IMG/VR virus record: IMGVR_UViG_3300035438_000194
Span: 32,001-96,000 of that record
Reading direction: 5' to 3' (one strand)
DNA: 64,000 nt
DNA from: a virus
The notes under the pieces were generated by a model, which did not search any database, had not been told where the DNA came from, and saw only the letters and a list, made by a program, of their open reading frames with translations. This document shows, piece by piece, positions 33,801 through 48,855 of the stretch. A program made the translations under genes and the position numbers. Positions within the stretch are counted from its first letter, which is position 1, and every line of letters starts with the position of its first letter.

Positions 33801-36643
33801 AGAATGAGGGGCCTGTGTTTGAAGTTTTTGGTAATGATGTGGTTTATACTGTAGATGGTTCTATAGCACAGGAGTATGATTCACCTGAAGCTGCTAGAGA
33901 AGGTCTTAAGGAATGGTTAGCCGTACAACAGAAAAATATTGATAAAGCTTTAATTGAGGCAGACAGAAGAAAAGCTCTAAGAGAAAACAAAGATGTACTT
34001 AACAATCAGTATGTTATTGGAAGCCCTGAAACAGTTGAGGAAAGAATCAACAAGATATATGATCAAAAGTTAAGAGATGCTGGTATAACTCCTCCTACTC
34101 GAACTAAAGGTAGAGTTAAAGTTAAAGCATTTAGAACCACAGGTACCTTCTCATCTAAAGTACAGTATGCTCAACGTGGTGCTGGAGAGTACTATGCATT
34201 GGACAAACCTTTCCAAGACTCTGCAGTACCTGGTGAAGTAACTGAAGTAGAAGTTGAGTATGATACCAACAAAACTTTAGATGCAACAACTGTAGCTGGT
34301 CAACAAGAGTTTATGGCTATTAAGATGAGTGCTATCAACGGTAAGAAGTTTAGCTCTCAAGATGAAATGAATGAGGCTGTGAGAACAGCAATGTTGGAAG
34401 CAGGCTATGAGTCACTTATAGGAAGAATCGATGAGGATGTTCCTTCTGCAGGTAGAGAACTTGTTCTTTACACTAGAATGCCTAATCAAGGTAGTGAGAC
34501 CAGAGATAAGCAGGAGATGGAGGAAGAGTTTGAAGAACCGATTCCTGAAGAGAGAGAACCTGTTAGAGAGAAGACTAATCATGAGATAAACTTTGAGACC
34601 AGTCCTTTCCAATACAGACCTACTGCAACTACCCTTGGTTACTGGAATAACATTGAAGGTAGAATTGTATACTTCAGTAAGAAAACCGGAGAAGAAATTC
34701 TTAATCCAAATAGAATTAGGAAAGCTGCGCAAAAAACATTTGATCCTAACAACAAGAAGACACACGCTAACTTTAAGTTCTGGTGGAATAATCTTCTTAA
34801 TGATAGACAACGTTATGCTCTCAGAGAAGGTTTGAGGAGTGAGCTTTGGACAGCTGCAGGTAATGGTGATGACATGTATAGTGATGAGTATCGCATAATG
34901 TCAAGACTAAGATACATGAAGTTTAAACCCACTAAATTTAATAAAGCTGAGTTTACAGATGTTAGTCAAAAAGTATGGTTCTCTGATAAAGGAGCAGCCT
35001 TAGATTTGTTTGTGCTGGAAGATCTTATAGGTAATGTTAATAACGGTTTTCCTGAAGATACTGATCAGCAGTACTTACAAGATATGGTCATTGATCTAAT
35101 CAAGCAGTATCCTAACGGTATAACTAATTATGACCTAAAGCAAATCCTAAGAAGAGATAGCTTCCAAGTTCAATTTGAAGAACTTATGGATGGCTTTACA
35201 ACAAGCTATGGTGTTGACTTAAACAGTCTAGCTGCTTTGATGGATATGTATGTAGATACACTAAAACCAGTTAAATCAATACAAGAAATAAATGAACAAG
35301 AAGACCGTGAAAGTCAAGGACCATCCACAGATCAAGAGGGCGATGGCGAGCAGAGAACTCCTACTGAAGTTGCTCCGAGGTTCCAAGGAAAAGTAATTGT
35401 TACAAACTTTAGTAGCGATACTCCCCTTGTAAAAGACATTCCGGGTGTTACTTATGGTACAGATCTTTATGCAGAAGCGTTACCTAAGTTCTTCACTCCA
35501 GAAGTACTTGCTATAATGGCTAATGCTAGCATATCAGGTGAGAATCAATTAGTAAACTCAATATGGGAAGCTGCTAAATTCTTATCAGAAGGTAAAGAAC
35601 TCACAGCTGAAGATGTTAAAAAAATAAACTCTATACTGGGTCTTTCTGTATATGTGAAGAATAAGTTTCTTTCAGATCCTAAATTCCCATATAGTGATCG
35701 TCCTAAAAACGCACAATTAACACTTGACACCTTAACTAGACTTAAGGAAGCTGTTGATAATCAAGTAGTTAAAGATGCTAGAGTTATTGCTGAAAATGGT
35801 GGTACTGTTGTATTTGATAACAACTCATTGATTACACACCCTGGTGTAGATGAAGTGTTAATCAGCAAAAGTTCTGATGACTACCAGAAAAAGGCACCAA
35901 CCTCTGAATCAAGAAGAAACTTTGACGCCCTTATTAGCAATGTTAGTTACACAGACATCTCAGGTAAAGACCTTGTAGATTATCTTAAGGGTACTGAAAC
36001 ACTGCGGTATACGCTAGATCCTAAACTTAAGAATATAAGAGAGGCTCTTTCTAAAGCAGAAGACCGTTTGGCAGTAGCAAAAATCATAACGGATACAGGG
36101 ATTTTAAACGACATAGGTGTGTTGGATCAAATACTTAAAGAACAGAACTTAACTAGAGATGAACTTCGTGAACTGAGTTCTAATGCTAAGGCTAGATTCA
36201 AGGGTACTCTTGCTTTTGCTGATATTGCGCAACGTATTAAACCAGGGTTACCAATTGAAGAACGTATTATCCAATACACTGATAAAGATGGTAATGTTAA
36301 GACTGGTGTAATTATGGAAGTTATAGGCTTTGTTGATAACGTAGAAGTTGCTCCATATACTGGTAAAGAAAGTATGTCAGATTTGCAAGATCAGTCAAAG
36401 TGGGTTACCTTTACAGTAGGTGAAATACCTTATAAACTATTTGATGTTAAAACAACACCGCCAGTGACTGCAACTCCAGATATAACTCAACAATCAGATG
36501 ATTTACTTAAGGCTGAGCAAGCTAATAAAGCTGCTGCAGTAGAAGCATTTAAGAATAAAATCAATGATGATGACTTTAAAAATGAATCTGTTGATGATGC
36601 TGAGGATGATTTGTTTGACGGACTTCAAGAATGCCCCTTTTAA
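27884..36643 (+). CDS. Giant polyvalent ejection protein (2919 aa): N-terminal Gly/Ala membrane-like helices, degenerate zincin, PD-(D/E)XK nuclease, ART-like domain
   Basis: AGAVDLIAYD..G.VYIIDLKT...QQNAY nuclease motif (~32350-33050); FVAEAMTN; AFRT...GAGEYY...AGYESL...RELVLY. Confidence 0.75.
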   Translation: MAEQNTPEKGALVTPATLKLQNAQGAKSPVSGAPVTGDIKRAAGTSAGPPNKQPANMSNQERALARMNGAMLNAYTPDTNKYNKITTYNATHHGRNFERYYAHPKFKELGFSPFRDNEAHYNKNSSLWDDAQRGIVTAGKLFGGAFVGAAKNWSNPFSMEPDTEASDEMERLMSIGSSNRGGFGSSVINFGVNSAYGFGVMGEVLAEEAALALGTAFSGGALGGMAGLRTALNAKKLAGAFSLGKAAKSFTSAFKNVTKINEARQLWGAAKGIGKAADYLTPFSQTRSLLTQAGRAEAKWDSLDNMAKVSKGFGSFYRDLREINAVTYESKLEGGGVQTEVINNLMSDFRKKNGRDPNDQEAQLMYQQGHKAGYLNAQMNAVGIYISNKIVLDKALKGIPGMAQADNVARRTMKGTLLKVQDWAKKGVNPWEVASGIKKYGKAAFYKQTFNPKNLAKGGLGYLSANLMEGTQEVYQEAIANGITSYYMDSFNNPSRVGGAEFQAKMLGGLKSQMSGQGMETFLSGFLMAGPMTAAQSAFFKGMDMTRRAKLKMQDKAFKADPANAGKASPFEEQLNAEKDYDNKVVDALNDMTMDPKKYFSAIEQNARTQADLERLGEQAAADGDMHAAKNIKDESLTNHIITMLESGHFEIFQDQLKGLKELDTQELQEAFDEPGDAKKTVAQRIDAVLKRTEQIKATYQKYQEKTNPFSMREDPLSYMAFEQARNIAIRNDVTYQRTGERMTDILNQFNSNMPFTNADATDFTNLFVVGGMTEGGSPRIGLGSEINLLDQQIQGLDPDIPEQKAEMDRLTEKRDNLKSLSGTLQAFASAYKTTQSAAQTEEKHATNMDTFIETEKVFKEAYATYVRGLAKASGQTVLDSAIDEGFQQLADFWKLNADRQDVANAVNMMQNPDMYRNATEKIRDAMDKAFAARKESLKKALDGYKKKHLVNAFFNDLFEKYNAFVEPEEANGYIDKNIVPETFYDADTLEEIEPGSEKYKGIMALIDQYDEIYFEETGERLIRTELPENMQRLAGYNTETKEAIYQEFTPRDPKDKRSIAALAKEFGFNNIDTESPVEALEVLKAIARSKHGYVPRAQKKLAQALLGFIKPGTLIRFKNGHRTNSTFDPVNGIIVDANFSAEGFQNANIPIEFSILNAVMQQVASESLADPDFNNRITALREQFNESLEANDRNYFKYALANNQQFVAEAMTNADLQAEMGKKPFEGEMTEQTAEAKTMWESFMDSIYEALEKIFGVTRGKSLYQEAMNVITNKLAQPGVAGPSAVPSVLAEDEVIEDDIDIEEDEPELDQMLRAKFNEIVNAMPAADKVGMNFETWKQSDSVAISMRNKYNADKIKKKTGTPGGATVMTEAEQVRRLTSLGYQISEINNMKKDGKQDDIDNIIKNDIKKKIQIRSVDSKGNVTYIEADYDQPITARPNVIAAINKAVKTLEDANVGLTADEENYIQRVQVGVDEKTGEPIYKQKEGTPLYERTSHVVKDKFEGTNKEATDRGNIIDLLLRDFLKGDILDIRQFRNAYAKYQKKHSSAVFSEEMLNDLFDKFRSVQILLKSNGLTVISNLPGLYGKIGKRYTAGAVDLIAYDAAGRVYIIDLKTSTQDRRAQYKLETDLENEFGARYSEIKEAIKGGREKKKSLSETLNSTRISEEDKKRIMKVAEANPTEDAIYFFKDQDAKQQNAYKELLRQSTGLVADMLTIFPLLTSKTGKIFTKVEFQKEGKDHSMRVETYDIHDKLGLVNEATYPENPIDRAAKETPITKEPAEEPITEVPNFFTLGDVNYSENGIDTKYYIAVPQSSTLSWDEIVEKNSITREEYIKAYAESLKEKEAIRKREEKEREVAEEKRKKEEAYWGNNTNNLVGKTLQFDVGENEKGEPFRKSVKIEKVHLLENGNYRIIASSRGGRLYDVTTDENGNILSYTRDGKTFSGNITDEIFFPSDSFVKPLESTVEEQPTQENEGPVFEVFGNDVVYTVDGSIAQEYDSPEAAREGLKEWLAVQQKNIDKALIEADRRKALRENKDVLNNQYVIGSPETVEERINKIYDQKLRDAGITPPTRTKGRVKVKAFRTTGTFSSKVQYAQRGAGEYYALDKPFQDSAVPGEVTEVEVEYDTNKTLDATTVAGQQEFMAIKMSAINGKKFSSQDEMNEAVRTAMLEAGYESLIGRIDEDVPSAGRELVLYTRMPNQGSETRDKQEMEEEFEEPIPEEREPVREKTNHEINFETSPFQYRPTATTLGYWNNIEGRIVYFSKKTGEEILNPNRIRKAAQKTFDPNNKKTHANFKFWWNNLLNDRQRYALREGLRSELWTAAGNGDDMYSDEYRIMSRLRYMKFKPTKFNKAEFTDVSQKVWFSDKGAALDLFVLEDLIGNVNNGFPEDTDQQYLQDMVIDLIKQYPNGITNYDLKQILRRDSFQVQFEELMDGFTTSYGVDLNSLAALMDMYVDTLKPVKSIQEINEQEDRESQGPSTDQEGDGEQRTPTEVAPRFQGKVIVTNFSSDTPLVKDIPGVTYGTDLYAEALPKFFTPEVLAIMANASISGENQLVNSIWEAAKFLSEGKELTAEDVKKINSILGLSVYVKNKFLSDPKFPYSDRPKNAQLTLDTLTRLKEAVDNQVVKDARVIAENGGTVVFDNNSLITHPGVDEVLISKSSDDYQKKAPTSESRRNFDALISNVSYTDISGKDLVDYLKGTETLRYTLDPKLKNIREALSKAEDRLAVAKIITDTGILNDIGVLDQILKEQNLTRDELRELSSNAKARFKGTLAFADIAQRIKPGLPIEERIIQYTDKDGNVKTGVIMEVIGFVDNVEVAPYTGKESMSDLQDQSKWVTFTVGEIPYKLFDVKTTPPVTATPDITQQSDDLLKAEQANKAAAVEAFKNKINDDDFKNESVDDAEDDLFDGLQECPF

Positions 36644-36663: not shown

Positions 36664-39600
36664 ATGATTTGTAAACCTGACGGAACATACGAGATAGAAC
36701 AATCTGATATTGATAAAGTTAATAAATGGGTATATAAGCTTCTTAGCACTAGAGCTACTAGCGGTACCCGTACTTTTGACCTTAATGCTTTTGTTAAGTA
36801 TGTATATACCAGAAGTTTAGAAAAAACAAATGATGCTCAAAAGGCATTAACAATTGCTAGACAGGTTCCAATTGCTATTGATCTTGTTATCAGCGCTGAT
36901 CCTGATCTTAGAAAAGGATTAGCTGCTTTACAAGGTTACTCAAGAGATGCAGTTGATGCTATGGGAGATTCTTTCTTAGAGTCTATGACTGCTGTATCTG
37001 ATTTGGTTAATACAGACCCTACTAAGAAGGATCTTGCTAATACCTTAGCAGCAACTGCAAATGTAGAATTGTTACAACCTGTAACTCCTACAATACAAGC
37101 AGGTGCATTAGAGACTGGTAGAGAACTTGTAAGTGATTTGCCTTATACACCTCTCAGTACAACTGGTAATGAAGATATACCAGGTAGAGAATGGTACTAT
37201 GGTTTTATAAAGAATATTAGCAATCAAGATCTTGGATTAAGTAATACTGGTACTGCATCATACTTTGGTGTTAAAGATGGTATCCGCATTGCTATGGTGC
37301 TTGGTAGTCAGATTCCTGTAGATCAGTTATACTTGGATGTACAGAATCAAACTGACATTGAAGACATAAAAAAGAATCAGTTGTTTACTGTAGTTACAGA
37401 TAATGCTGGAAACTTTGTATACTTTAATGAGAACTATGAGGTAACTGATGCTGAGAATGGTAAACTAGTATACTTCCCTACAAGAACTATCCCTTCTATG
37501 AAGGTAGTAGATGGACGCAAGGTGTTTAATCTAGGTGAGCAATCTGACCGTACTGTACAAAGTATTAAGGATAAAGTGCGTAAAATAATGGCTGACGCTC
37601 CTTTGCTTAAAGAGAAAGATGCAAGAGAGCAAGTAGAAGTAGAGTTCCAAGGAGCCTACAGTCTACTTAGTGATATAGCAGATCATTTACAAAATAATCC
37701 TTCAGATAAGGTATTACTAAACTTGACTGGTATCAATAAGGGTACATTGCGCTATGACCAAGATACGGTTACTCCGCTATCCTCTATCAAGAACTTAGGC
37801 GCACTGAATCTTAGGATTAGAACAACTGGCGTTAGTTCTGAAGGAACCAAACAAGAATTTGAAACAAGAAGATATCTTGCTATTGATGGTGTATCAGACA
37901 AGATAGGATTCTCTATGAACAGCTTTAGTACAGCAATGGCCTCTAAAGTAGCTGACTTATTAGTCAATGATGTTTATACAGAAGATGGCACTCGTTTGTC
38001 TACAGATGACAAATACAAGATGATAAGAACCTTTGTACCATTGGGTACTACAGGTCTTACTATAGTTACGGCAAATAATGAAATCAAGATTGGTGGTAAT
38101 ACAGTAGACTTATCAGATAAAGCTGCAGCAAAAGCAGCTATAGTAGAATTCCTTACAAGAACCATTAAAGTAAATGATTCAAAAGGGAACGAGATAGAGA
38201 TTAAAAACCAACTGCGATTTGACGGAAAGACTTACGAGGCTTCTAACGGAGTCATTGATGATTTTACTATTACACCAGCATCAGATGGAACATACACAGT
38301 TGCTAGCAATTTAGTTGACTACAAGACTTGGCTTAAGGATAATGCTTATATCAAAATACAACTTGACTCTAACGGTAACGTTACACAAGTTAATGGTTAC
38401 TTTGAATTCAATGCAAGTCCTGAGACAAGAAAAACTATAGCAAGTAGACAAGTTGAGCAGATGGCTGTACCTAAGAAAGGTGGAGATCTTTCTTTGAACG
38501 GTTTGACTGCACCAACAGTTGAGGATAAAGAAAACGCATTAGCTAAAATTAGAGAAAGAGCAAAGGGTAGAAACAACAAACCTTTGTTCTCAATGCGTCA
38601 TGATTCATTAGCTGCAAACAAGGCTCAGATTAGACGAGGTAAGAAGTGGTTTGATACTACTGAAATTAAGTTTAAAGATGCAGACGGAAAAGTTGTAACT
38701 AAGAAACTATCAGAGATTGTACCTTATGAGGTTATGTTTAACGTGATCAACAGCAATGGTGATATACGTGCTACATGGACCCGTAATGGTATTACCCTTT
38801 TCAATGGATCAGACTATACAGACCTTTACCATGAAGCATGGCATGGCTTTACTCAGTTGTTCTTAACTGCTGATCAGAAGACTGCTTTGTATAATGAGGT
38901 AAAGAGTCTTAAAGAAGACATTAAGTACTATGATCATAAGGCTGGAGAATGGAAGACCATGAACTCCAAAGACTTAGATTTTAGCGACAGAAATCATATT
39001 ATATATGCTGAAGAATATCTAGCAGACAAGTTTAGAAAATATTCAATGGACAGATCTGCACCAAGTGCTAAAGTTAAGTCCATCTTCAGAAAGATATGGG
39101 ATGCTATTAAAGCATTGTTTAGCAGAAGCACTAAAGAATCTGCGGCTAACCCATATAACAACACATTAATAAATCAAGCATTTGACCAGTTATATACTGG
39201 TAACTTAGTTGACTATACATTTGATCAAGCTAACATTCAGTTTGGTCAGTTAAACTATGGTATAACAGCCATTGATAAAGATTTAAACGGTATAGAAGGT
39301 CTTAGTGTTGAAGACTCTCTTGCTATATCAGAAGGTATAAACCACTACATAGCTGAGTATATTGATATGGCGGTAGCTGGTCTAGTATACGGTGATGCTA
39401 ATCCTGCATATAGTTCTTTGATCCTAACGGACGCTGAGTACAAAAAGGAAGCATTATTTTACGCTAAGGATATGTTACAGGTTCAGCTTGATAAACTTTT
39501 AGCTGAGTATGGTACAAAGGTTTCCTACGAGAAGCAAATAGCTGAGAGACAAATCAAAACATTAACATTTGCTATTGATCAGTTTGGTGATCTAGATGAT

Positions 39601-42600
39601 TTACGTAATAATAAGAAAGGTACATTAGCATTCTTTAATAAGAAGACCGGTTACTTAGATCTTACTACGTATAAGACTGATGATAATACAGATGATGCTA
39701 CTGAGGAGGATGACGATGATTCTGGAAGACCAACAAAGTCAAAGGACAGAACTGGTATGTATGCTGGTAACGGTACGGAACTTTCTGGTCTTGAGAGAAT
39801 GGACTCAATATTAAAGTTTGCATTCTCAAACATAACAGAGATAGGACCTGATGGGATAAAGCGTAATCAGATGGGTCTTCCTGTAATGGCTTCTTCAAAA
39901 ACAATCTTCAATATGGTTTCTTCCCTTACGGAGAATCTTAATGATAGAGAGGAAATGTATAGAGCCATTTGGAATAAGTCAGAGGAGAAAGAAAGAAATG
40001 GTGAGCCTACACCTATGGCTCAAATGCTCAAGCAGTTCCTAAGCAAAGTAGGAGAGCCTAAGGATGCTACAAGCGGTATTGCGCAATTGTTTTGGAATAA
40101 AGTATTCCATGGTTTACGTACAGACCGTTTAACGAGCATACAAGTAAACATTAATAAGACAAAATACGGTCACGAAGTTATAGTTGGTGAGACTGACTCT
40201 TCTGATAAAGCTATCTTAAGAGGTTGGCAAGATGCCTTTGTGTTTAATAATAAGTCTGATTATCTTATTGTAGATCCTAAGACTAATGAGAAGTACTTAG
40301 ACCTGAAAGCATTGAATGCAAAGTATGGTAATATTGGTCCGGGTCAGCCTATTGAAAGTATTGACCAAATCAATCCTTATCAATTCTTTAAAGATTTTGG
40401 TATTCTCATAACACCAACTAATAAGAATCTTAAGGCTATAAGAGATCAAGATATTATAAGAACTCTACTTAGATTTAGGCTTGCCCCTTTAATGAGGATT
40501 CCTGATTTAAAAGTAACTAGCTATAATAGTCTTTTTATGGAGAACCATCCTTACATTGATGCTAAGGGTGAGAAGTCGGTATTACAAGAACAAGGTGGTG
40601 TAATGAATAAATTACTAGCACTTGAGTCAAAAGCCAATCCAAAGTATTCTGACTACATGCGTTTGTTTGGTGCTGATGCAAGAAGTGAGAGATCAAATCC
40701 AAGCGGTCCAGGTAATACACTCATTGCTTTAAATAAAGCAGGTAACTTCAATAATATAATATCAAGACCTGAGCTTAGTCAATATAACCCTAAGAAGAAT
40801 CCTGCAGTTAAGACATCTGTTATTTTTAATAAGATGTTCCCTAGTTTAGGGGCAAGAGATCAAAGATACAGTCTTGACTACCAAGCAATGTTAGGTACTC
40901 AGTATATTGATAAGAGAGCGGGTATTGATACATTAGTAACTAGTCTAGCATCAGCAGAATCAGATGAGCAAGTAGCATATCTACGTGACTTCTTCTCTTT
41001 CTCATTGCATGGTGCAGCTGAAGCGTTCAAGCATGCTGATAAGAACATGGCTTATATCGTACAGCTACTTGGTCCACAAATGTTCTATATACCCATAGCA
41101 GACTTTGCAAAAGGTACTGGAGAAGGTAACACAGGAAAACAAGCTGCAAACAAAATTATAACTGGTTACATAGCTGCTGAGTTAGAAAGAATCAAGAAGG
41201 TACTAGCTAGTAAAGAACTTACATCTGGTGAGAAAGCATCAGACATTATATTATATACAGATTCAGAGGCAACTGTAAAAGATGAGGATGGTTTAATCAG
41301 AGAAGTAAAGTATAAAACACTAGCTGATGTTGGTGTTGAGTTTACCGTGTTTGATGACATCCTATCAGATGATTTAAAGGCTAGACTTATAAATGATAAG
41401 AGTATTCAGACAGTTGAAGACTTCCTAAAGTTATTATCTGGTGATAAAGCCTTAGAACAAAGCATTCACAGAGAGTTAAATACTTACTTTGCTAAGCTGG
41501 TAAAAGAAGATAGAGACCAACTTGAGTCTTTTGAGTTCTTTAAAGGCGCTAATAAAGCTAAGTCACTTAGTACTATTAAAAACAGATCGTTTAAAAATAG
41601 TAGTCTTAGTACTGATGAAATCTTTGATGCATCAGTGTTACACTATGTGTATGCATCATTCATCCACAAGATGGAGATGAGCACCTTGTTCTATGGGGAT
41701 GCTGTTATGTTCCAGCATGATAAGGATGAGCATATGAAAAGGATTCCTACATTCTTTGCTACAGGAAAGATTCCAGTGTTTGATGACACTATGGAAAACT
41801 GGTTGTTATCATCAGCAGGAGGTTACTATAAATCTGAGTTCTTTAAAAACTCTGGGTTGACTCAACCTACTAGTAATCAATTAGTTACAAGACAATTGAA
41901 TACTGCTATCCTTGAGGATGCCATAGAAAGTATATCAAAAGAAGCCTTTGACCAAATGGTGGAGGCGTACCTAAAAAATAATCCAGGAGCTACAGAAGCT
42001 GAAGCTAAAGCTAAGTACAAGTCATATAGGAATATGAAGTCAGCGGATGCTCAAGGATGGATTTCCTTTGATGCTTACCGTGCTTTAGAAATACGCTTAG
42101 ACAACTGGAGCCCTGCTAAAGAAGTAGTATACCAAGAGGTGTTAAAAGGAGAGATCAGTGACCCTGAAATACTTGAGACATTCTTCCCTGTTAAGAAGAT
42201 GCAGTATGCTGGACCTATGGGTACTGAGAACTTTGCGGCTAATGCTGTACACAAGTACTCATTGATGCCTTTGATTCCTACTATTATTAAAGATACAGAG
42301 CTCGAGAAACTACACAATAAGATGGTTTCTCAGAACATTGCTTACTCTGTAATGCACAGTGGTTCTAAGGTTGCTAGTATAGGTAATGGTAATAAGTTAA
42401 GTAAGTTCTACACTGAACCGAACGGTAACCGCACATTGGCATTTACTGCTCCTGATTACCAGTTCTCTTCTAGTGTTATCTACTTAGATTACTTTAAAGA
42501 GCAGCTCGTAACACATGATACTGCAAAGGGTAAAGTAAAGTTCCCAACACAGAAACGTGCATTGGTTACATCTGGCCTTGATGAGTTTGGTGTACCTACA

Positions 42601-45600
42601 GACTTTGAAGTAGGTAGCACTGATGATGAAAGATTAACTGCTTGGAATGCGCTGCCTGATGAGAAAGCTAGACTAAAAGCATCTAAAGCATATACCCTTA
42701 AGAGAAACTATCAAAAGGCATTTAAAGAACTATTTGATACAGCTAAAGACAAGTTGAAGATGGAACTTGGTTACAAGGATCCTAAATCAACTTCAAAAAC
42801 AGAAGGTCTTAACTTAGAGAAACTTATGGCTTTTGTAGAGGAGCAACTCCTTAACAGAGAGACCTTGTCTGAGTATGAGTTAGACTTTTTGCAAATGAGC
42901 CCTAGCGGTCAGTTGATTTATCCGCAAGACTTTGGTTCAGATCCATCACAGATTGAAAAACTTATATCATCATTGGTCAATAAGAGAATTACTGACCAGA
43001 TGTCTAGAGGTGAGTCTTTCATCCAAGTGTCTAGTGTTGGTTTTAGAAAAGCTGATTTGGCAGCAGATTCTAGTTTATTATTCTACCGTATAGGACCTGA
43101 TGGTAAAACGTTACCAATGCAGGTTAAGATACCATTGATGGGTGACTTTAAAAACCTATTGAACCATGTGGACAATGATGGTAAAAAGATTGGTACCCTG
43201 GCTCGTTTAAATGAGTTGATCAAGGATGAGAAGTGGATGAATGAGAACCGTGAAATGCTTACTATGGGCGGTGACCGTATTCCAATTCAGGGTCACAACT
43301 CTATGGAGGTTATGGAAGTAGCTGAGTTCTTTGATCCTGCTGGTGGTAACATGATGGTATTACCATTAGAGATTGTTGCTAAGACCGGTGGTGACTTTGA
43401 CATTGATAAGCTTATCTGCTTGATCCCTGTTATCAAAAACAACATGGGTGTAGTAGAACTATCTAAACCCACTAAGACCCGTAAGGTACTTAAGACTATT
43501 GTTAAGGAGAAGAGTGACTTGTATAATGAACTTAAGGCTTTAAGAAAACAATATATTAAAGAAGAACTTACACCAGAGTTTAGAGAAGAAATTAGTAAAC
43601 TTGAAGATGAGCAAAGAGCAGCTCAGCAAGAGTTTAATGAAAATTATATTAATGATTACTATGTAGGCGGATCATTAGATAAGTATATGAACCGTATCAA
43701 CAGTGCTCAACAAACTATTGATGCTATATATGATCAACTCTTTGAAGACAGGAAAGAAGTATTCCAAGGTGAATTTGATCAGTATATTGATGAGGCTCAA
43801 CCTATACTTAATAAGTTACGTGAGTTAAACAGACAAGAAGATACATTCAGTCCCGATGCCTATCAGAATAATCTGATGCAAGCAATGAATGATATATTAC
43901 TAAGAGGTGAAAACTTTACTAACCTTACACTTCCTAATGATACAGAGACCTATACAGCTAAGGGTGGTATTGTTGATGAATTTACAAGTGTAAACAGACC
44001 TTATCAAAGAAGTAATAATAAGACTAATAACAGAAGAAAGAAAATGTCTCCTACCCGTATCATGGAGAATCGTTACAACAATGTTAAAGCATTTGCAATG
44101 AGTGCGGGTAAGAGCGGTGTAAGTTTGGGTGCTAAGACTAACAAGATCTTTATAAAATATAAAGAGGTTGGTTTGTACTTTGAACCTACTTATACAGCTA
44201 TTAAAGGAAACAAGCAGTACCCTATTAAGCAAAGATTACTAGTAGATCATAAGACTGTTTTAGTTAATGGTAAACGAGCAATCTCTATGGGGCATGGTAA
44301 GGATGTGAATGGTAAAGATATTTCAGATCAGATCTCTCAGTTGATGAATGGTTACTTAGACGTAGCTAAAGAAGACTGGGTATTTGATATCAATGCTGTA
44401 AAAGAATTAGAACCTGAGTTCTTATTATTGTTACAGGCGGGTGTTGGTCCTAGAATGGCAACAGCTTTAATATCACAACCTTTAGTTAAGAAGTATGTAG
44501 AAGCTATCCGTAAGAGAAGTAATGCATTCTCATTAGCTGTTAGTGATAAAGAAACTTCTTTAAGCTTTGCTAAGTATGAAGCCTTGTTAGAAATATTGGA
44601 CAAAAACATGCCTGATATATTCAACTATGCTGATGCACCTGTAAATCAGGAAACTGGAAATATTATAACTCCATCAAATGAAAAGTTATTGTTTGATGCG
44701 CAAAGGTTTTTAGGTAATCGCGGAAACTTTAATATTGATGATCTTATAGCTAATGCTAAGAAGGGTCCTGATTCTGGAGTCACTGGATATGATATAGAGG
44801 CATTTGCTCACTTCATGGAGATCATGGATCTTACTAAAGGAGACAAAGAACTTAAGCAAAGCATAGATATTGACACTAAGAAGCAATTGACTGCGTTAGA
44901 TGCGACTAAGAAAATTAATGCGCTTAAAGACCTATCTGGTAGATTCCCTAAGAGTAAGATTAAAAGTCTTCTGGATGACACATATTTATCTAACTTTAAG
45001 ACTCAGGGTCTTCTGCTTGAAGCTATTTCAAAAGTGTTACCATTACGAGGTTTAAAATCTTTAAATGACTTTGCATACGATCTTAGTAAGAATAAAAAGT
45101 TTGATGATCAGAAAGCAAGAGAGAACTATGAAAAGAACTTGATTGCTGACTTTCCTTCTTACATTGCAGCTAATGCTAGACCACGTGTAACTAGTAATGA
45201 TGCAAGTTATAGAGGTGTTGAAATTGAACAAACTATACCAATCAATAAGCAAACATTACTTAAGTTTGGAGCTATCTATATGGATGGTGCTCTTCAAGTA
45301 GACCAGACTCAGATTGACATTGACTTTGATAACAGAGCTTATACTAAAGATGGTTATGGAGACGGTCTTCTTGCTAAACTACCACCTACCGTATTCTCAG
45401 AATATGATAAAGGTAAAAAGACTGCTAGAAACTTATACAGAGCATTTGTATTTGAAAGAGAGATAGCACGTGCAGCATTCCCTTATACTGAGATAGAAGG
45501 CACTGATGATCAGTTTGAGTTATTTAGAGCAGAGTTTCAAATGTATCAAGTAATGCGTATGAACACCCCTGGTGGTGCAAAGCTTGACCTAGTGGATCAG

Positions 45601-48600
45601 TATGAAGAGTTTATCAGAAACAAAGCATTATATAATGCAGGAATTGATGCTGGTAGATTTATGTCTATGCCTAGCATGGGTATCTTTAGTATGTATGATA
45701 CTTTCTCAGCTATACTTAACCAGGCAAATATTCAAGGTGTAAATCTAAAAGAACAGTTCCCTGTATTAGAAAGCCTTAGACAAACTGAAGTAGAAGGTAA
45801 GAAGTTTAACTTTATTACTTTAGCTAGAAAGGTTAAAGATGTAGATGATCGTACATCATTTACAGCACAGTTGCTTAGCTTGATGAATCCTAATGTCCGT
45901 AAGGTTGGTAATGAAGGTTTCAATCTTGCTATCAGTTCTTTCTTTGCTAAGTTCCCAGAGATGGCATTTGCCCAAGCTGGTAACAACAGTGCAAGTGGGT
46001 TATACATTGGTTCAATCGTAGACGCTAAGTCTATAGCAGTTGCCCAAGCGGACAACTTAAATGAGTACATTGAAGCCCTTAAGGATCCTGAAACAGCTAA
46101 AAACATCTTAAATGACTACGCTAGAAAGTTTGAGCAAAAAGCTCCTTACAAAAACAAAGCAGCTTATTTTAACTATAACAGTAACAAGGATATCACTGAT
46201 TATATTCCTGAGGCGCTACCAGAAGATGCATTATCAATTGCAGAATCAGAAGTAAAGAAAGAGCCACACTGGAGAAAGGATGAGGCTATGGCCAATGCTT
46301 CAACAAAGGCAATTGCTAAAGCTACACAGCCAAAAGATGTTACTTATAGAAGTTCAACCAAAGCTTATCTAGAAGCCCTTGGCGGAGCATCTACAGACTT
46401 TACAAGTTCTGATGCTGTATGGATATTTGGAGCAGGTGCTTGGAGTGCTACAGCAAAGAATATCAAAGAAGACTTTGATAATTACTATGTACCTATGATC
46501 AATAGAGCCTTAGAATCAGGTGTCACTACCTTCAATATAGGTACAGCATCTGGTATTGATACTATGGCAACAGACTACTTAAAGAGTAAAGGCTTTACTG
46601 TAGAGTCACAGGGTGAGTGGAATAAACTTACTGGTGGACCGGTAACAGCTGTTGAAACAGCTAGAACCATCTATGATAAAATTAATAAAGATCAAACAAC
46701 GCAGTCAGAAAATGTAGTATTACCTAAAGATTTAGAAGACAATAAAATATATTCAGGTAAGGAATTCTGGAATAAAATTGTACCAGAAGCGAGGGATATG
46801 TTTGATGATAAGGTAAATCCAAAAACAGGTCAGACAAGACCAATGATTGTTGCGTATAGAGGTAGTCATAAAAAAACGTTTTTGCAGAACTACAAAGATG
46901 GCCTTACTGTAGGTAATCCTTTTGATTGGCAAGTTGAAACAGGCACTGGGGATGAGAAAGGTATAAAGTCTACTAAACGATTTATACATTGGATGATTAC
47001 CGGAGATAACATGGGGACAGCTGCAGCTACTCCAGAGTACAGACAAGCTATCATAGATGATATTAAGTCAGGTAAGATAAAAGGCAGTCCTATTCTTTAC
47101 TATGCAGAGAAGAACTATGCTACTCACGCAACAGCTTTAGACTATCTGATCAATAAGCATGACTGGGATGCTCAAGCTCCCGGTGCTCGTAAAACTTATA
47201 CTGGGAAAATAACTAGTTTGCAACCTAATCAAATATTTGTATTTGGTTCCAATGAAGGAAGTTCTAAAGGAGGTAAACCTACACATGGATCAGGTTCTGC
47301 TAAAGATGCTAAAGACAAATTTGGAGCTATTCAAGGTCAAAGCAGAGGAGCTCAAGGACAGTCTTATGCAATTGTAACTAAGAAGTTCTACGATGTAAAA
47401 AAGTCTAGCACTCCTCAAGAAATCATAGAAGAGATCAAAGGTTTATATGCATATGCTGAACAAAACTCTGATAAAGATTTCTTAGTATCTGACTACTCTG
47501 AGAGTAACCTTAATGGTTATACCGGGCAAGAGATGGCAGATATGTTTAATGCTGCTGGATCTATACCTTCTAACATTGTGTTTAATCAAAACTTTGATAA
47601 GCTATTACCTAGTACTCAAGCTCCTAGAGCTACTGTAAAAGGACCCGGTCCAGAGACTAAGATGAATATTTATGCCGGTACAGGAGAGAATGCTGAATTA
47701 AGTAACTTTGCTAATAGACCTTTTTTCCCTACAACTAATGGATTGGCACAAGCTAGATTTAATAATGTAGAAAGTGCATATCAAGCAGCTAAGATTCTAT
47801 TCTATACAGATAAAAGTGATAAGGCTACACTTGAATATAATGCATCTCTATATAACCAACTTAAAAATACCAATGGTTCTCAAGCTAAATCTATAGGTAA
47901 AAATATTAGATCTTTAAACATTCAAGATTGGGATGCTAATTCTTCTAGAATAATGAAGGAACTGTTAAAACAGTCCTTTGAACAAAATCCAGATGCTCTT
48001 GCTAAACTTCTTGCTACAGGTAATGCTACTCTTACACATACACAAGATAGAGGTAAGTGGGCTACAGAGTTTCCAAGATTGCTTATGGAGGTAAGAGAAG
48101 AGCTAAGTCCTTCTCAACCACAAGCAGCAGCTGGACCAACTGTACAAGCTGCCCAAGCTGCACCAGGTCTTATCATTGACATAAGAGGTCCTAAGGAACT
48201 AGTTGATTATGAGACTGGTGATTTGATACCTGTAGCTAAAGTATACAAGCAGACTCAGTTCATTACAAAAAATGGAGACGGAGTGGAGATTGCTTATACT
48301 CTTCCTGAACAACTTGCTAAACAAATAATGGATGAGAATCCAAACAATGTATTTGTATTTGATTGGTTCCGTCCTCACAGTACTGGTAAAGAAAACACTG
48401 CTGCAAGAAACAATACTAGACAAGCTTGGAGATCAGGTTTAGCAACTGGACAAAGTTTTGGTATCACTACTAGAACCTTTGAAGGAAAAACACCAAGTGA
48501 TGTACAGTTTGAAGGTGTTAAAAAAGTTATTGATGAGCAGATTGAACAACTTGTACAACTCCGTGACTCAGGTAAGATCATTACCTTCCCTTCAGATGGT

Positions 48601-48855
48601 ATAGGTCAGAACTTTAAAGGCTCAGGTGCTGATCGAATCTTTGTATATTTGTCTAAGAAGCTTCTTGAGAATTTTGGTTACAGAAATCCAGCGTTTGATA
48701 ACATAAGCTTAGTACTTGGACCTTTAGAAGTAACAGGTACAGACTATACGCAAGACTTCTATAAGAAGATGGCGGATGCTGAGTCTGGAGAAAAGGCTCA
48801 GACAGTTACAGACAATGAAGTTAGAGAACATATTAAAACGTGTAAAATAAAGTAA
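36664..48855 (+). CDS. Giant virion RNA polymerase (crAss-type, DFDID) with N-terminal zincin and C-terminal accessory domains including NADAR
   Basis: RIPIQG (43276) and GGDFDIDK (DFDID at 43393-43407); ADAQGW; KYSLMPL; HEAWH at 38830-38844. Confidence 0.9.
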   Translation: MICKPDGTYEIEQSDIDKVNKWVYKLLSTRATSGTRTFDLNAFVKYVYTRSLEKTNDAQKALTIARQVPIAIDLVISADPDLRKGLAALQGYSRDAVDAMGDSFLESMTAVSDLVNTDPTKKDLANTLAATANVELLQPVTPTIQAGALETGRELVSDLPYTPLSTTGNEDIPGREWYYGFIKNISNQDLGLSNTGTASYFGVKDGIRIAMVLGSQIPVDQLYLDVQNQTDIEDIKKNQLFTVVTDNAGNFVYFNENYEVTDAENGKLVYFPTRTIPSMKVVDGRKVFNLGEQSDRTVQSIKDKVRKIMADAPLLKEKDAREQVEVEFQGAYSLLSDIADHLQNNPSDKVLLNLTGINKGTLRYDQDTVTPLSSIKNLGALNLRIRTTGVSSEGTKQEFETRRYLAIDGVSDKIGFSMNSFSTAMASKVADLLVNDVYTEDGTRLSTDDKYKMIRTFVPLGTTGLTIVTANNEIKIGGNTVDLSDKAAAKAAIVEFLTRTIKVNDSKGNEIEIKNQLRFDGKTYEASNGVIDDFTITPASDGTYTVASNLVDYKTWLKDNAYIKIQLDSNGNVTQVNGYFEFNASPETRKTIASRQVEQMAVPKKGGDLSLNGLTAPTVEDKENALAKIRERAKGRNNKPLFSMRHDSLAANKAQIRRGKKWFDTTEIKFKDADGKVVTKKLSEIVPYEVMFNVINSNGDIRATWTRNGITLFNGSDYTDLYHEAWHGFTQLFLTADQKTALYNEVKSLKEDIKYYDHKAGEWKTMNSKDLDFSDRNHIIYAEEYLADKFRKYSMDRSAPSAKVKSIFRKIWDAIKALFSRSTKESAANPYNNTLINQAFDQLYTGNLVDYTFDQANIQFGQLNYGITAIDKDLNGIEGLSVEDSLAISEGINHYIAEYIDMAVAGLVYGDANPAYSSLILTDAEYKKEALFYAKDMLQVQLDKLLAEYGTKVSYEKQIAERQIKTLTFAIDQFGDLDDLRNNKKGTLAFFNKKTGYLDLTTYKTDDNTDDATEEDDDDSGRPTKSKDRTGMYAGNGTELSGLERMDSILKFAFSNITEIGPDGIKRNQMGLPVMASSKTIFNMVSSLTENLNDREEMYRAIWNKSEEKERNGEPTPMAQMLKQFLSKVGEPKDATSGIAQLFWNKVFHGLRTDRLTSIQVNINKTKYGHEVIVGETDSSDKAILRGWQDAFVFNNKSDYLIVDPKTNEKYLDLKALNAKYGNIGPGQPIESIDQINPYQFFKDFGILITPTNKNLKAIRDQDIIRTLLRFRLAPLMRIPDLKVTSYNSLFMENHPYIDAKGEKSVLQEQGGVMNKLLALESKANPKYSDYMRLFGADARSERSNPSGPGNTLIALNKAGNFNNIISRPELSQYNPKKNPAVKTSVIFNKMFPSLGARDQRYSLDYQAMLGTQYIDKRAGIDTLVTSLASAESDEQVAYLRDFFSFSLHGAAEAFKHADKNMAYIVQLLGPQMFYIPIADFAKGTGEGNTGKQAANKIITGYIAAELERIKKVLASKELTSGEKASDIILYTDSEATVKDEDGLIREVKYKTLADVGVEFTVFDDILSDDLKARLINDKSIQTVEDFLKLLSGDKALEQSIHRELNTYFAKLVKEDRDQLESFEFFKGANKAKSLSTIKNRSFKNSSLSTDEIFDASVLHYVYASFIHKMEMSTLFYGDAVMFQHDKDEHMKRIPTFFATGKIPVFDDTMENWLLSSAGGYYKSEFFKNSGLTQPTSNQLVTRQLNTAILEDAIESISKEAFDQMVEAYLKNNPGATEAEAKAKYKSYRNMKSADAQGWISFDAYRALEIRLDNWSPAKEVVYQEVLKGEISDPEILETFFPVKKMQYAGPMGTENFAANAVHKYSLMPLIPTIIKDTELEKLHNKMVSQNIAYSVMHSGSKVASIGNGNKLSKFYTEPNGNRTLAFTAPDYQFSSSVIYLDYFKEQLVTHDTAKGKVKFPTQKRALVTSGLDEFGVPTDFEVGSTDDERLTAWNALPDEKARLKASKAYTLKRNYQKAFKELFDTAKDKLKMELGYKDPKSTSKTEGLNLEKLMAFVEEQLLNRETLSEYELDFLQMSPSGQLIYPQDFGSDPSQIEKLISSLVNKRITDQMSRGESFIQVSSVGFRKADLAADSSLLFYRIGPDGKTLPMQVKIPLMGDFKNLLNHVDNDGKKIGTLARLNELIKDEKWMNENREMLTMGGDRIPIQGHNSMEVMEVAEFFDPAGGNMMVLPLEIVAKTGGDFDIDKLICLIPVIKNNMGVVELSKPTKTRKVLKTIVKEKSDLYNELKALRKQYIKEELTPEFREEISKLEDEQRAAQQEFNENYINDYYVGGSLDKYMNRINSAQQTIDAIYDQLFEDRKEVFQGEFDQYIDEAQPILNKLRELNRQEDTFSPDAYQNNLMQAMNDILLRGENFTNLTLPNDTETYTAKGGIVDEFTSVNRPYQRSNNKTNNRRKKMSPTRIMENRYNNVKAFAMSAGKSGVSLGAKTNKIFIKYKEVGLYFEPTYTAIKGNKQYPIKQRLLVDHKTVLVNGKRAISMGHGKDVNGKDISDQISQLMNGYLDVAKEDWVFDINAVKELEPEFLLLLQAGVGPRMATALISQPLVKKYVEAIRKRSNAFSLAVSDKETSLSFAKYEALLEILDKNMPDIFNYADAPVNQETGNIITPSNEKLLFDAQRFLGNRGNFNIDDLIANAKKGPDSGVTGYDIEAFAHFMEIMDLTKGDKELKQSIDIDTKKQLTALDATKKINALKDLSGRFPKSKIKSLLDDTYLSNFKTQGLLLEAISKVLPLRGLKSLNDFAYDLSKNKKFDDQKARENYEKNLIADFPSYIAANARPRVTSNDASYRGVEIEQTIPINKQTLLKFGAIYMDGALQVDQTQIDIDFDNRAYTKDGYGDGLLAKLPPTVFSEYDKGKKTARNLYRAFVFEREIARAAFPYTEIEGTDDQFELFRAEFQMYQVMRMNTPGGAKLDLVDQYEEFIRNKALYNAGIDAGRFMSMPSMGIFSMYDTFSAILNQANIQGVNLKEQFPVLESLRQTEVEGKKFNFITLARKVKDVDDRTSFTAQLLSLMNPNVRKVGNEGFNLAISSFFAKFPEMAFAQAGNNSASGLYIGSIVDAKSIAVAQADNLNEYIEALKDPETAKNILNDYARKFEQKAPYKNKAAYFNYNSNKDITDYIPEALPEDALSIAESEVKKEPHWRKDEAMANASTKAIAKATQPKDVTYRSSTKAYLEALGGASTDFTSSDAVWIFGAGAWSATAKNIKEDFDNYYVPMINRALESGVTTFNIGTASGIDTMATDYLKSKGFTVESQGEWNKLTGGPVTAVETARTIYDKINKDQTTQSENVVLPKDLEDNKIYSGKEFWNKIVPEARDMFDDKVNPKTGQTRPMIVAYRGSHKKTFLQNYKDGLTVGNPFDWQVETGTGDEKGIKSTKRFIHWMITGDNMGTAAATPEYRQAIIDDIKSGKIKGSPILYYAEKNYATHATALDYLINKHDWDAQAPGARKTYTGKITSLQPNQIFVFGSNEGSSKGGKPTHGSGSAKDAKDKFGAIQGQSRGAQGQSYAIVTKKFYDVKKSSTPQEIIEEIKGLYAYAEQNSDKDFLVSDYSESNLNGYTGQEMADMFNAAGSIPSNIVFNQNFDKLLPSTQAPRATVKGPGPETKMNIYAGTGENAELSNFANRPFFPTTNGLAQARFNNVESAYQAAKILFYTDKSDKATLEYNASLYNQLKNTNGSQAKSIGKNIRSLNIQDWDANSSRIMKELLKQSFEQNPDALAKLLATGNATLTHTQDRGKWATEFPRLLMEVREELSPSQPQAAAGPTVQAAQAAPGLIIDIRGPKELVDYETGDLIPVAKVYKQTQFITKNGDGVEIAYTLPEQLAKQIMDENPNNVFVFDWFRPHSTGKENTAARNNTRQAWRSGLATGQSFGITTRTFEGKTPSDVQFEGVKKVIDEQIEQLVQLRDSGKIITFPSDGIGQNFKGSGADRIFVYLSKKLLENFGYRNPAFDNISLVLGPLEVTGTDYTQDFYKKMADAESGEKAQTVTDNEVREHIKTCKIK

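Follow-up and report, generated by a model that had tools for sequence, protein, structure and literature searches.

The closest described counterparts of the protein analysed here include polyvalent proteins, crAss-like virion RNA polymerases and phage factors directed against ADP-ribosylation. Polyvalent proteins (Iyer, Burroughs, Anand, de Souza, Aravind 2017; PMC7824862, PMC9503650) are very large and virion-associated, carry many effector domains and differ in architecture between relatives; their injection and early action are predicted, and NAD/ADP-ribose domains are frequent in them. Both the injection of such proteins and the packaging of Macro, NADAR and SLOG domains into virions are predictions (PMC9503650, PMC7824862), and phage domains targeting ADP-ribose (ADPr) were considered to counter soluble NAD-derived signals more often than macromolecular marks (PMC9503650). 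Phage NADARs from several clades counteract DarT1, and every one assayed so far targets ADPr-guanine DNA (PMC11825919). The virion RNA polymerases of crAss-like phages carry a DFDxD motif; packaging in the virion and translocation into the host have been demonstrated for phi14:2 gp66 only, a zincin domain is reported in phi14:2 gp65, and cleavage of the crAss polymerase polyproteins is presumed (bioRxiv 10.1101/2020.03.07.982082).

Neither the polyvalent-protein idea nor phage anti-DarT factors of the NADAR and macro types are new to the literature. The protein described here resembles the polyvalent proteins in being a giant multidomain product of a virion gene block with several effectors and a variable architecture, but it differs from them in its carrier, a crAss-like two-barrel virion RNA polymerase, and in that its effectors are confined to a single defined variable slot, with the polymerase body on one side and a constant end domain on the other, and are linked by a repeated QAP joint. 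The treatment of polyvalent proteins and ADPr domains in PMC9503650 does not mention crAss phages, and a literature search of partial coverage returned no description of an array of ADP-ribose domains on a crAss polymerase.

Giant open reading frame and polymerase body

The window, i.e. the whole stretch of 64 kb that was analysed, contains one giant open reading frame (ORF) with the following features.

36664..48855, + strand: giant ORF of 4063 aa, with an N-terminal part carrying HExxH, a two-barrel RNA polymerase body, a variable cassette region and a constant end domain
38830..38844, + strand: zincin-like HExxH motif, here HEAWH, residue 723; N-terminal part of the giant ORF
43393..43407, + strand: DFDID metal-binding motif at residue 2244, in the polymerase body

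The earlier note on this DNA had taken the product for a virion RNA polymerase, and this identity was upheld because of the DFDID motif at residue 2244 and the match of residues ~1777-2617 to phi14:2 g066, the 'catalytic RNA polymerase subunit' (tblastn, E 4e-16, 21.5% identity). The two marks used for crAss-like virion RNA polymerases, the DFDxD motif and similarity to gp66, were both found, and the gene neighbourhood is a block with virion structural proteins. As judged from its sequence, ORF 36664-48855 encodes a crAss-like virion RNA polymerase in polyprotein form. With phi14:2 gp66 it also shares large flanking genes in the virion block; however, gp66 has 2180 residues and no add-on tail, whereas the giant ORF possesses an extra HExxH-bearing N-terminal part, similar to the crAss cr4_1 sequence upstream of the cr4_1 polymerase core, and ~860 residues of add-on domains.

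Domain architecture of the C-terminal tail

Module borders were determined with HMMs that were built on the sequences of relatives and run on the giant ORF. All five modules that had been proposed behind the polymerase core were recovered, so that the last ~860 residues consist of five independently conserved modules, M1 to M5.

46288..46629, + strand: M1, residues 3209-3322; relatives' HMM E 1e-39; G-rich loop and GTASGIDTMA (GxAxGxD)
46654..47166, + strand: M2 together with the conserved extension at its N-terminus; GNPF ... KSGK ... ILYY ... THATAL; no Cys
46837-47166, + strand: M2 core, residues 3392-3501; relatives' HMM E 3e-56
47171..47180, + strand: left-hand CTCAAGCTCC copy (10-nt joint encoding xQAP), at the M2/M3 border
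47188..47616, + strand: M3, residues 3509-3651; relatives' HMM E 5e-61; A1S_2505 / phrog_2072 family, predicted macrodomain fold
47615..47624, + strand: right copy of CTCAAGCTCC, at the M3/M4 border
47641..48120, + strand: M4, NADAR, residues 3660-3819; relatives' HMM E 3e-59; E3703, K3710 and H3792
48121..48195, + strand: A/P/Q-rich disordered linker at the M4/M5 border
48196..48846, + strand: M5, residues 3845-4061; relatives' HMM E 1e-93; constant C-terminal alpha/beta domain, DUF7831-like

The coordinates given previously for M1-M4 agreed with these borders within ~30 nt, but M5 is larger than had been claimed. The A/P/Q linkers said to separate the modules are present at M2/M3 (DAQAPGA), M3/M4 (STQAPRATVKGPGPE) and M4/M5 (SPSQPQAAAGPTVQAAQAAPG, pLDDT <50), but not between M1 and M2, where the spacer is poor in A/P/Q and belongs mostly to the M2 module, whose conserved N-terminal extension from 46654 always accompanies M2. 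The joint CTCAAGCTCC occurs in only 2 copies in the 64 kb, flanking M3, with 0.08 expected. Each of M1-M5 was found elsewhere singly or in a different order, so that they can be taken as genuine domains and do not reflect chance similarity. The effector array is organised as beads on a string between the conserved polymerase body and the conserved DUF7831-like end domain.

NADAR and macrodomain modules

M4 is securely a NADAR domain, as the earlier note had proposed, while its glycohydrolase activity is predicted. It reached 56.3 bits against Pfam NADAR (PF08719; cut-off 35.1) and 49.6 bits when the whole protein was scanned, and its profile matched YbiA with E 7.6e-20. The predicted fold is the helical one of YbiA (Foldseek E 2e-6); it superimposed on 8bau_A, a NADAR with ADP-ribose, with Z 16.7 and an rmsd of 2.1 A over 144 residues, on YbiA (2b3w) with Z 14.1 and on 8bat_A with Z 8.9. 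The Glu-x6-Lys motif is retained (VESAYQAAK; E3703-x6-K3710) and falls on the corresponding motif of YbiA and P. nicotianae in the alignment, and H3792 aligns to the YbiA Glu at the third catalytic site, where phage NADARs have His (PMC11543638). The fold, the motif residues and the third-site His are common to M4 and the AdfN phage anti-DarT1 factors (T4 gp30.3, Bas32, Bas60; PMC11825919); however, the latter are free-standing and made after infection, whereas M4 is built into the polymerase chain, and its activity and guanine specificity are predicted.

M3 belongs to an uncharacterised family, A1S_2505/phrog_2072, which was found in 216 phage records (NCBIfam NF049995, 87.8 bits, cut-off 45; phrog_2072, E 2.5e-28) and in which FVFGSN, HGxGxA, SYAIVTK and NLNGY are nearly invariant. 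No match to Pfam Macro (PF01661) was obtained at E <= 10 in M3 or across the 113.8-kb genome, and a profile search of the PDB with M3 returned no sequence relatives. The macro-like character proposed for M3 was nevertheless borne out by the predicted fold (pLDDT 85.5 for the model containing M3), with Z 10.6 to TARG1, 10.1 to T. aquaticus DarG and 9.9 to M. tuberculosis DarG, and Foldseek probabilities of 0.97-1.0. In the fold search 140 chains had a Z of at least 8, over model residues 130-279, and among the 50 best representative chains 45 were macrodomains or macro-fold domains. Structure prediction thus supports M3 as a macrodomain with TARG1/DarG as its nearest folds (PDB 2l8r, 4j5s, 5m3e, 5m3i; Z 10.1-10.6, 125-134 residues aligned, 14-16% identity), although alphavirus (nsP3) and other macrodomains tie with them to within 1 unit of Z.

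SLOG-like and DUF4326-like modules and the end domain

M1 and M2 are leads of lesser strength. For M1, proposed as SLOG-like, the G-rich loop and the GxAxGxD motif are in place, with G48, G85, G89 and D91 invariant in the family, and a language-model match of 0.88 points to YAcAr; on the other hand, Pfam YAcAr (PF10686) gave no match in M1, in 17 members of the M1 family or in the whole genome, and a profile search of the PDB with M1 returned no sequence relatives. By motif and language model, M1 is retained as a lead to a SLOG-like domain. Elsewhere, proteins of the M1 family are fused to DUF4326, NADAR-DarT1, DUF7831 and A1S_2505-like domains, and in P0271 a true DUF4326 is placed after the M1-family domain.

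[quoted passage not shown] The DUF4326-like assignment made for M2 stood as a weak lead only, by the GNPF motif and a weak BFVD match to a DUF4326 protein (probability 0.57). The Pfam model (PF14216) found no match in M2, in 11 M2 homologues or in the whole genome; in hhalign, M2 and P0271 aligned over only 13 columns with P 0.11, and hmmsearch was not significant. M2 was folded jointly with M3, and the fold matches listed for this model are those of M3. Combined MAFFT alignments of M1, M2 and M3 were dropped, since free-standing M3 sequences were placed on M2 columns and M1 rows on M2 and M3 columns.

M5 had been described as a second, diverged macro-like domain, and this description was not supported. 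Its best fold matches were Cys-phosphatase-like folds at Z 4-5, followed by macrodomains at only Z 3.7-3.9, and nothing exceeded Z 5.1; the search was made within a 408-residue model of M4 and M5, and the low Z is no evidence of a new fold. Against Pfam DUF7831 (PF25176) M5 reached 21.8 bits, below the cut-off of 27, while its homologues P0242 and P0243 (74-82% identity) carry a precomputed DUF7831 assignment. Throughout the lineage M5 is retained as the DUF7831-like terminal domain, with a conserved peptide at its C-terminal end, and it is not a cassette or an added effector. Some resemblance of M5 to M3 was noticed (a 16.9-bit A1S_2505 match, shared VFVF / GQSFGI motifs), and an origin of M5 as a diverged copy of M3 was considered but found no support (hhalign of M3 against M5, P 0.04, with a short though plausible alignment).

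Variation of the tail among relatives

A comparison of polymerase C-termini among relatives had been suggested as a check for domain shuffling, and it revealed that modules are swapped. More than 1000 giant proteins share portions of the tail in varied combinations, also with AlkB-like, ART-PolyVal and helicase domains, which is an arms-race signature. Close relatives vary in the presence, absence and order of M1-M4: P0002, with 93-97% core identity, is without M3 and has a different, shorter NADAR-like piece. Conversely, M3 is 85-87% identical between proteins whose cores are only ~41% identical, which points to exchange between lineages. The module families also exist as free-standing phage genes, and abundant human-gut crAss-like lineages carry a macro-NADAR pair on the polymerase too. 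Scans for single modules yielded few related loci, and one metagenome scan a single locus.

Proposed function and alternative explanations

On balance it appears likely that the protein is a virion RNA polymerase polyprotein with an exchangeable effector array, and that its tail is delivered with the DNA and removes ADP-ribose marks of the host. The array would here consist of a SLOG-like domain, a Cys-less DUF4326-like domain, an A1S_2505-family macrodomain and a His-type NADAR. Either the whole chain or pieces cut at the flexible linkers would be packed in the capsid and enter the cell together with the DNA, as in the case of phi14:2 gp66; the C-terminal 860 residues could be cleaved off. 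Inside the cell, the NADAR domain and the macrodomain would strip ADP-ribose from incoming DNA, nascent RNA or proteins that DarT-like ADP-ribosyltransferase defences of the host had marked, with the specific DarT1/DarT2 pairing as a candidate, while the remaining modules would process products derived from ADP-ribose. The add-on domains would thus probably enter along with the DNA as tools of counter-defence. Delivery with the polymerase and action before phage gene expression may reasonably be assumed because of the phi14:2 precedent (bioRxiv 10.1101/2020.03.07.982082) and the turnover of cassettes; packaging of the tail, its catalytic activity and its target are what we infer.

Instead of erasing marks on DNA, the modules could work together as a pathway for the breakdown of soluble immune signals derived from NAD, or of toxic derivatives of ADP-ribose such as cyclic ADPR isomers and ADPr-1''-phosphate. 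The SLOG domain would then have the task of binding or cleaving the nucleotide and NADAR that of cutting N-glycosidic bonds, and the removal of ribose-linked groups would fall to the macrodomain and the DUF4326-like domain. This corresponds to the view that Iyer et al. 2022 took from contextual analysis, with Macro, NADAR, SLOG and DUF4326 co-occurring and fused in DNA viruses (PMC9503650), and the fusions of the M1 family resemble such a pathway-type association. We regard it as rather unlikely here, given the ADPr-guanine DNA substrate common to the assayed phage NADARs (PMC11825919), the insecure assignments of M1 and M2, and the nature of TARG1 and DarG, the nearest folds of M3, as macromolecule de-ADP-ribosylases, though with the tie in Z to other macro classes mentioned above. 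Very unlikely is a service of the erasers to the phage's own chemistry, either as one half of a writer/eraser pair with a co-delivered phage ADP-ribosyltransferase or in cleaning ADP-ribose- or NAD-linked transcript ends. Tails of relatives do have ART-PolyVal (PF18760) adjoining M3, M4 or M5 (P0009, P0017, P0019, P0022, P0031), but the Pfam model detected no ART-PolyVal across the 113.8-kb genome, a Pfam scan of the two neighbouring giants was likewise negative, and so was tblastn with the ART-bearing segments of relatives.

The tail domains might also not be delivered effectors, but serve the polymerase in its assembly, packaging or regulation, or be catalytically dead binders, possibly proteolysed before or during packaging. 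A structural role would suit M5, which is constant, shows no enzyme fold that could be recognised and has its conserved terminal peptide, and the presumed cleavage of crAss polymerase polyproteins would agree with this reading (bioRxiv 10.1101/2020.03.07.982082). For the tail domains in general this reading is highly improbable, because the variable presence and order of M1-M4 in close relatives are unexpected for assembly parts, the NADAR motif residues are retained and the module families are also free-standing phage genes. Returning to delivered erasers, the tail might furthermore be a dedicated in-frame cassette site, an 'integron inside a protein', in which (T/A)QAP joints allow gain, loss and swap of domains by recombination, and polymerase-tethered erasers might clear ADP-ribose at the site of first transcription (transcription-coupled de-ADP-ribosylation of template or nascent RNA); we consider this combined proposal quite unlikely.

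Implications for crAss-like phages

Should the tail indeed enter with the DNA, crAss-like phages, among them the abundant human-gut lineages with the macro-NADAR pair, would be pre-armed against ADP-ribosylation-based immunity with no need for gene expression, at the stage before expression, which is the period when DarT-type systems act. The analysis would also give a fold and a likely ligand to the widespread A1S_2505/phrog_2072 family. The cassette slot with its repeated joint may serve as a naturally assembled collection of candidate domains for counter-defence and as a tractable example of in-frame domain exchange.

Polymerase gene and side features

The open reading frame (ORF) of the giant polymerase (36664-48855, + strand) codes for 4063 residues. 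The window that holds it is part of a virus record that is complete at 113.8 kb and has direct terminal repeats. The ORF is located downstream of genes matching virion structural protein families, and ORFs of 2919 and 1849 residues lie on either side of it on the same strand. By tblastn, residues ~1777-2617 match g066 ('catalytic RNA polymerase subunit') of the Cellulophaga phage phi14:2 with E 4e-16 and 21.5% identity; they also match proteins from the polymerase block in many Crassvirales. A DFDID motif is present at residue 2244. On this homology 'virion RNA polymerase' is a sound label, and we infer that the protein is packaged in the virion.

An HEAWH (HExxH) motif is found in the N-terminal part of the protein (residue 723, window 38830-38844), in a region matching crAss cr4_1 just upstream of the cr4_1 polymerase core. 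This region may be a zincin-like domain, located on the separate neighbour gp65 in phi14:2 and here fused to the polymerase. The protein has only three cysteines, at residues 3, 2252 and 4060 (window 36670, 43417 and 48841); Cys 2252 adjoins DFDID and Cys 4060 lies within a conserved C-terminal ...CK.. peptide.

C-terminal modules

The limits of the five C-terminal modules were set by HMMs built from relatives and agree closely with the coordinates proposed in the earlier note.

C-terminal modules of the 4063-residue protein (+ strand)
Residues 3209-3322: M1, possibly SLOG-like
Residues 3392-3501, with a conserved extension from about 3331: M2, DUF4326-like by motif
Residues 3509-3651: M3, predicted macrodomain
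Residues 3660-3819: M4, NADAR
Residues 3845-4061: M5, end domain

Of the A/P/Q linkers that had been claimed between modules, A/P/Q-rich borders were found at M2/M3, M3/M4 and M4/M5, the last being disordered in the AlphaFold model.

M4 is a NADAR domain, as first proposed. The evidence is the Pfam NADAR model (56.3 bits, cut-off 35.1), a profile of relatives matching E. coli YbiA (E 7.6e-20) and P. nicotianae NADAR (8.3e-12), and an AlphaFold model (residues 3656-4063, pLDDT 82.9), which matches the NADAR-ADP-ribose complex 8bau_A (Z 16.7, rmsd 2.1 Å, 144 residues) and YbiA (Z 14.1). The motif VESAYQAAK supplies the NADAR Glu and Lys, essential as E88/K95 in E. coli C7 NADAR (Schuller et al.). 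The YbiA Glu position is aligned to His3792; members of the YbiA family are reported to have Glu at this third site, NADARs associated with DarT1 have Asp, and those of phages have His (PMC11543638). Three clades of phage NADARs include members that neutralise DarT1, and their specificity is for ADP-ribose linked to guanine (PMC11825919); by analogy, these NADARs tested elsewhere support a guanine-DNA reading for M4.

By sequence, M3 scores 87.8 bits (cut-off 45) with the NCBIfam model 'A1S_2505 family phage non-structural protein' and also falls in phrog_2072; many members of this family are free-standing proteins of ~140 residues, and it occurs in 216 phage records. The Pfam Macro model did not match M3 and a profile search of PDB sequences found nothing; the earlier 'macro-like' call was instead borne out by the predicted fold. 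In a search with the model of residues 3375-3655 (pLDDT 85.5), 45 of the 50 top representative chains were macrodomain-fold matches spanning the whole domain, including TARG1 (Z 9.5) and, both at Z 9.9, alphavirus nsP3 and M. tuberculosis DarG (rmsd 3.2 over 128 residues for the latter). In a further search 140 chains reached Z >= 8, with TARG1 at Z 10.6 and T. aquaticus DarG at Z 10.1, and Foldseek returned probabilities of 0.97-1.0 with weak E-values (0.01-0.1). The predicted macrodomain fold is thus secure; the subclass is not, because the matches are tied within 1 Z unit. The near-invariant segments FVFGSN, HGxGxA, SYAIVTK and NLNGY are candidates for the ribose/phosphate loops and catalytic Lys, an assignment that would suit the TARG1 sequence.

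The family of M1 is small: of 1.84 billion representatives searched, 82 matched at E <= 1e-3, and in most of them the domain lies near residues 3300-3600 of a giant protein. A G-rich loop and a GxAxGxD motif, together SLOG-like, are made up of the residues that do not vary in the family, and a language-model search reached YAcAr clusters at 0.88. Pfam models matched none of 17 family members; the SLOG-like call stands as a lead. In short M1-family proteins the fusion partners are DUF4326 (1.2e-14), DUF7831, NADAR-DarT1, RNase H and A1S_2505-like domains, which puts M1 in the same domain network. M2 resembles DUF4326 by its GNPF motif and colinear motif pattern, without the DUF4326 cysteines, and has a weak BFVD match to a DUF4326 protein (probability 0.57). 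The Pfam DUF4326 model matched neither M2 nor 11 homologues and profile comparisons stayed below significance, which leaves the DUF4326-like assignment resting on motifs. A second, diverged macro-like domain had been proposed for M5 and was not upheld: no match in the fold searches exceeded Z 5.1, with macrodomains (Z 3.7-3.9) below Cys-phosphatase-like folds (Z 4-5). DUF7831 is present in close M5 homologues, M5 itself scoring 21.8 bits (cut-off 27).

Cassette turnover among relatives

Parts of the tail are common to >1000 proteins of 2.2-7.1 thousand residues, in which NADAR, AlkB-like 2OG oxygenase, ART-PolyVal, DUF7831 and PIF1-type helicase domains occur as partners. All five modules were found together only in the 4063-residue protein among 325 collected proteins.

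Tail architectures of relatives
M1-M2-M4'-M5
M2-AlkB-M4-M5
M1-M4-M5
M4-M5
M1-ART-M3-M5
M1-M4-M2-M5
M5 alone straight after the polymerase body (protein P0011; loci L019-L021)

Since the M1-M4 makeup varies and M5 stands alone in some relatives, M5 is the backbone, the constant end domain of the lineage, with M1-M4 as its cargo. Proteins with a core identity of only about 41% share 85-87% identity in M3, which fits exchange between lineages or a much stronger constraint on M3.

The joint is visible against the nearest relative, P0002 (93-97% core identity), which lacks M3 and reads ...DWDAQAP-VTVKPG..., the matching stretch here being ...DWDAQAP-(M3)-STQAP-RATVKGPG.... The 10-mer CTCAAGCTCC is present in the whole 64 kb as exactly two copies (0.08 expected), which start at 47171 and 47615 and lie either side of M3. 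QAP-type motifs lie <=15 residues from module borders in 21/35 cases versus about 7 expected, a rough count that ignores the relatedness of the proteins.

The same polymerase-plus-modules design is found in human-gut Crassvirales: in cr50_1 (Suoliviridae) both the polymerase core and modules resembling M2/M3 are part of a 4774-residue 'DNA helicase', and in Kolpuevirus and cr112_1 an A1S_2505 domain lies within the 'putative RNA polymerase' ORF, one near the C-terminus and the other near the N-terminus. Among gut crAss-type giants of nearly full length (P0036-P0121; about 4900-5070 aa, on contigs of 94-102 kb), >80 carry M3-M4 in tandem along with PIF1/AAA_30 helicase domains, and in that lineage the two modules seem to stay together stably. 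Straight upstream of M5, many relatives carry a ~90-residue piece (VEQAYQELK ... SSTHQP; HMM E 1e-6 to 2e-8; P0002 3543-3632, P0008 3494-3587, also P0013, P0014, P0022 and P0023) that appears to be a NADAR, diverged or cut short, in place of the full domain. The recoded relative L014 is one further cassette combination, with a DprA-like (SLOG) segment and an FxDNTDR...G..HYP domain flanking NADAR and M2-like modules (L014:1-400 and 880-1500). In related crAss-like contigs, in-frame TAG codons where homologues have Gln (GNPFDW*KYG, L014:1501-1782 and L016-L018:1501-1794; VEGAF*AAK of a NADAR motif, L014:397-876) indicate TAG=Q recoding in these phages, unlike the window, which reads cleanly under table 11.

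Possible function of the tail

Polyvalent injected proteins, virion-packaged Macro/NADAR/SLOG/Nudix domains and DUF4326 fusions (PMC7824862, PMC9503650), anti-DarT1 NADARs (PMC11825919) and a phage DarG2-like factor (PMC13309987) have already been published. A crAss polymerase as carrier of effector modules, one variable slot marked by a repeated joint and a macrodomain fold for the A1S_2505 family were not found in the searchable literature.

The main rival to removal of ADP-ribose from DNA is that the modules degrade soluble NAD-derived signals, as favoured by Iyer et al. for phage versions (PMC9503650). A writer/eraser pair with a phage ART is possible in relatives carrying ART-PolyVal; this reading lacks support in the present phage because no ART was found, either by Pfam scan of the whole upstream 2919-aa protein (27884-36643, including 34112-34480; E <= 0.1), by the ART-PolyVal model over the genome, or by tblastn with the ART-bearing segments of relatives.

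DarT1 marks guanine and DarT2 marks thymine. The chain is most likely a polyvalent virion protein, in which flexible linkers connect a polymerase to a customisable effector set. With delivery like that of phi14:2 gp66, NADAR and macrodomain would be in the cell as soon as infection starts and could remove ADP-ribose from phage DNA, or from other targets.
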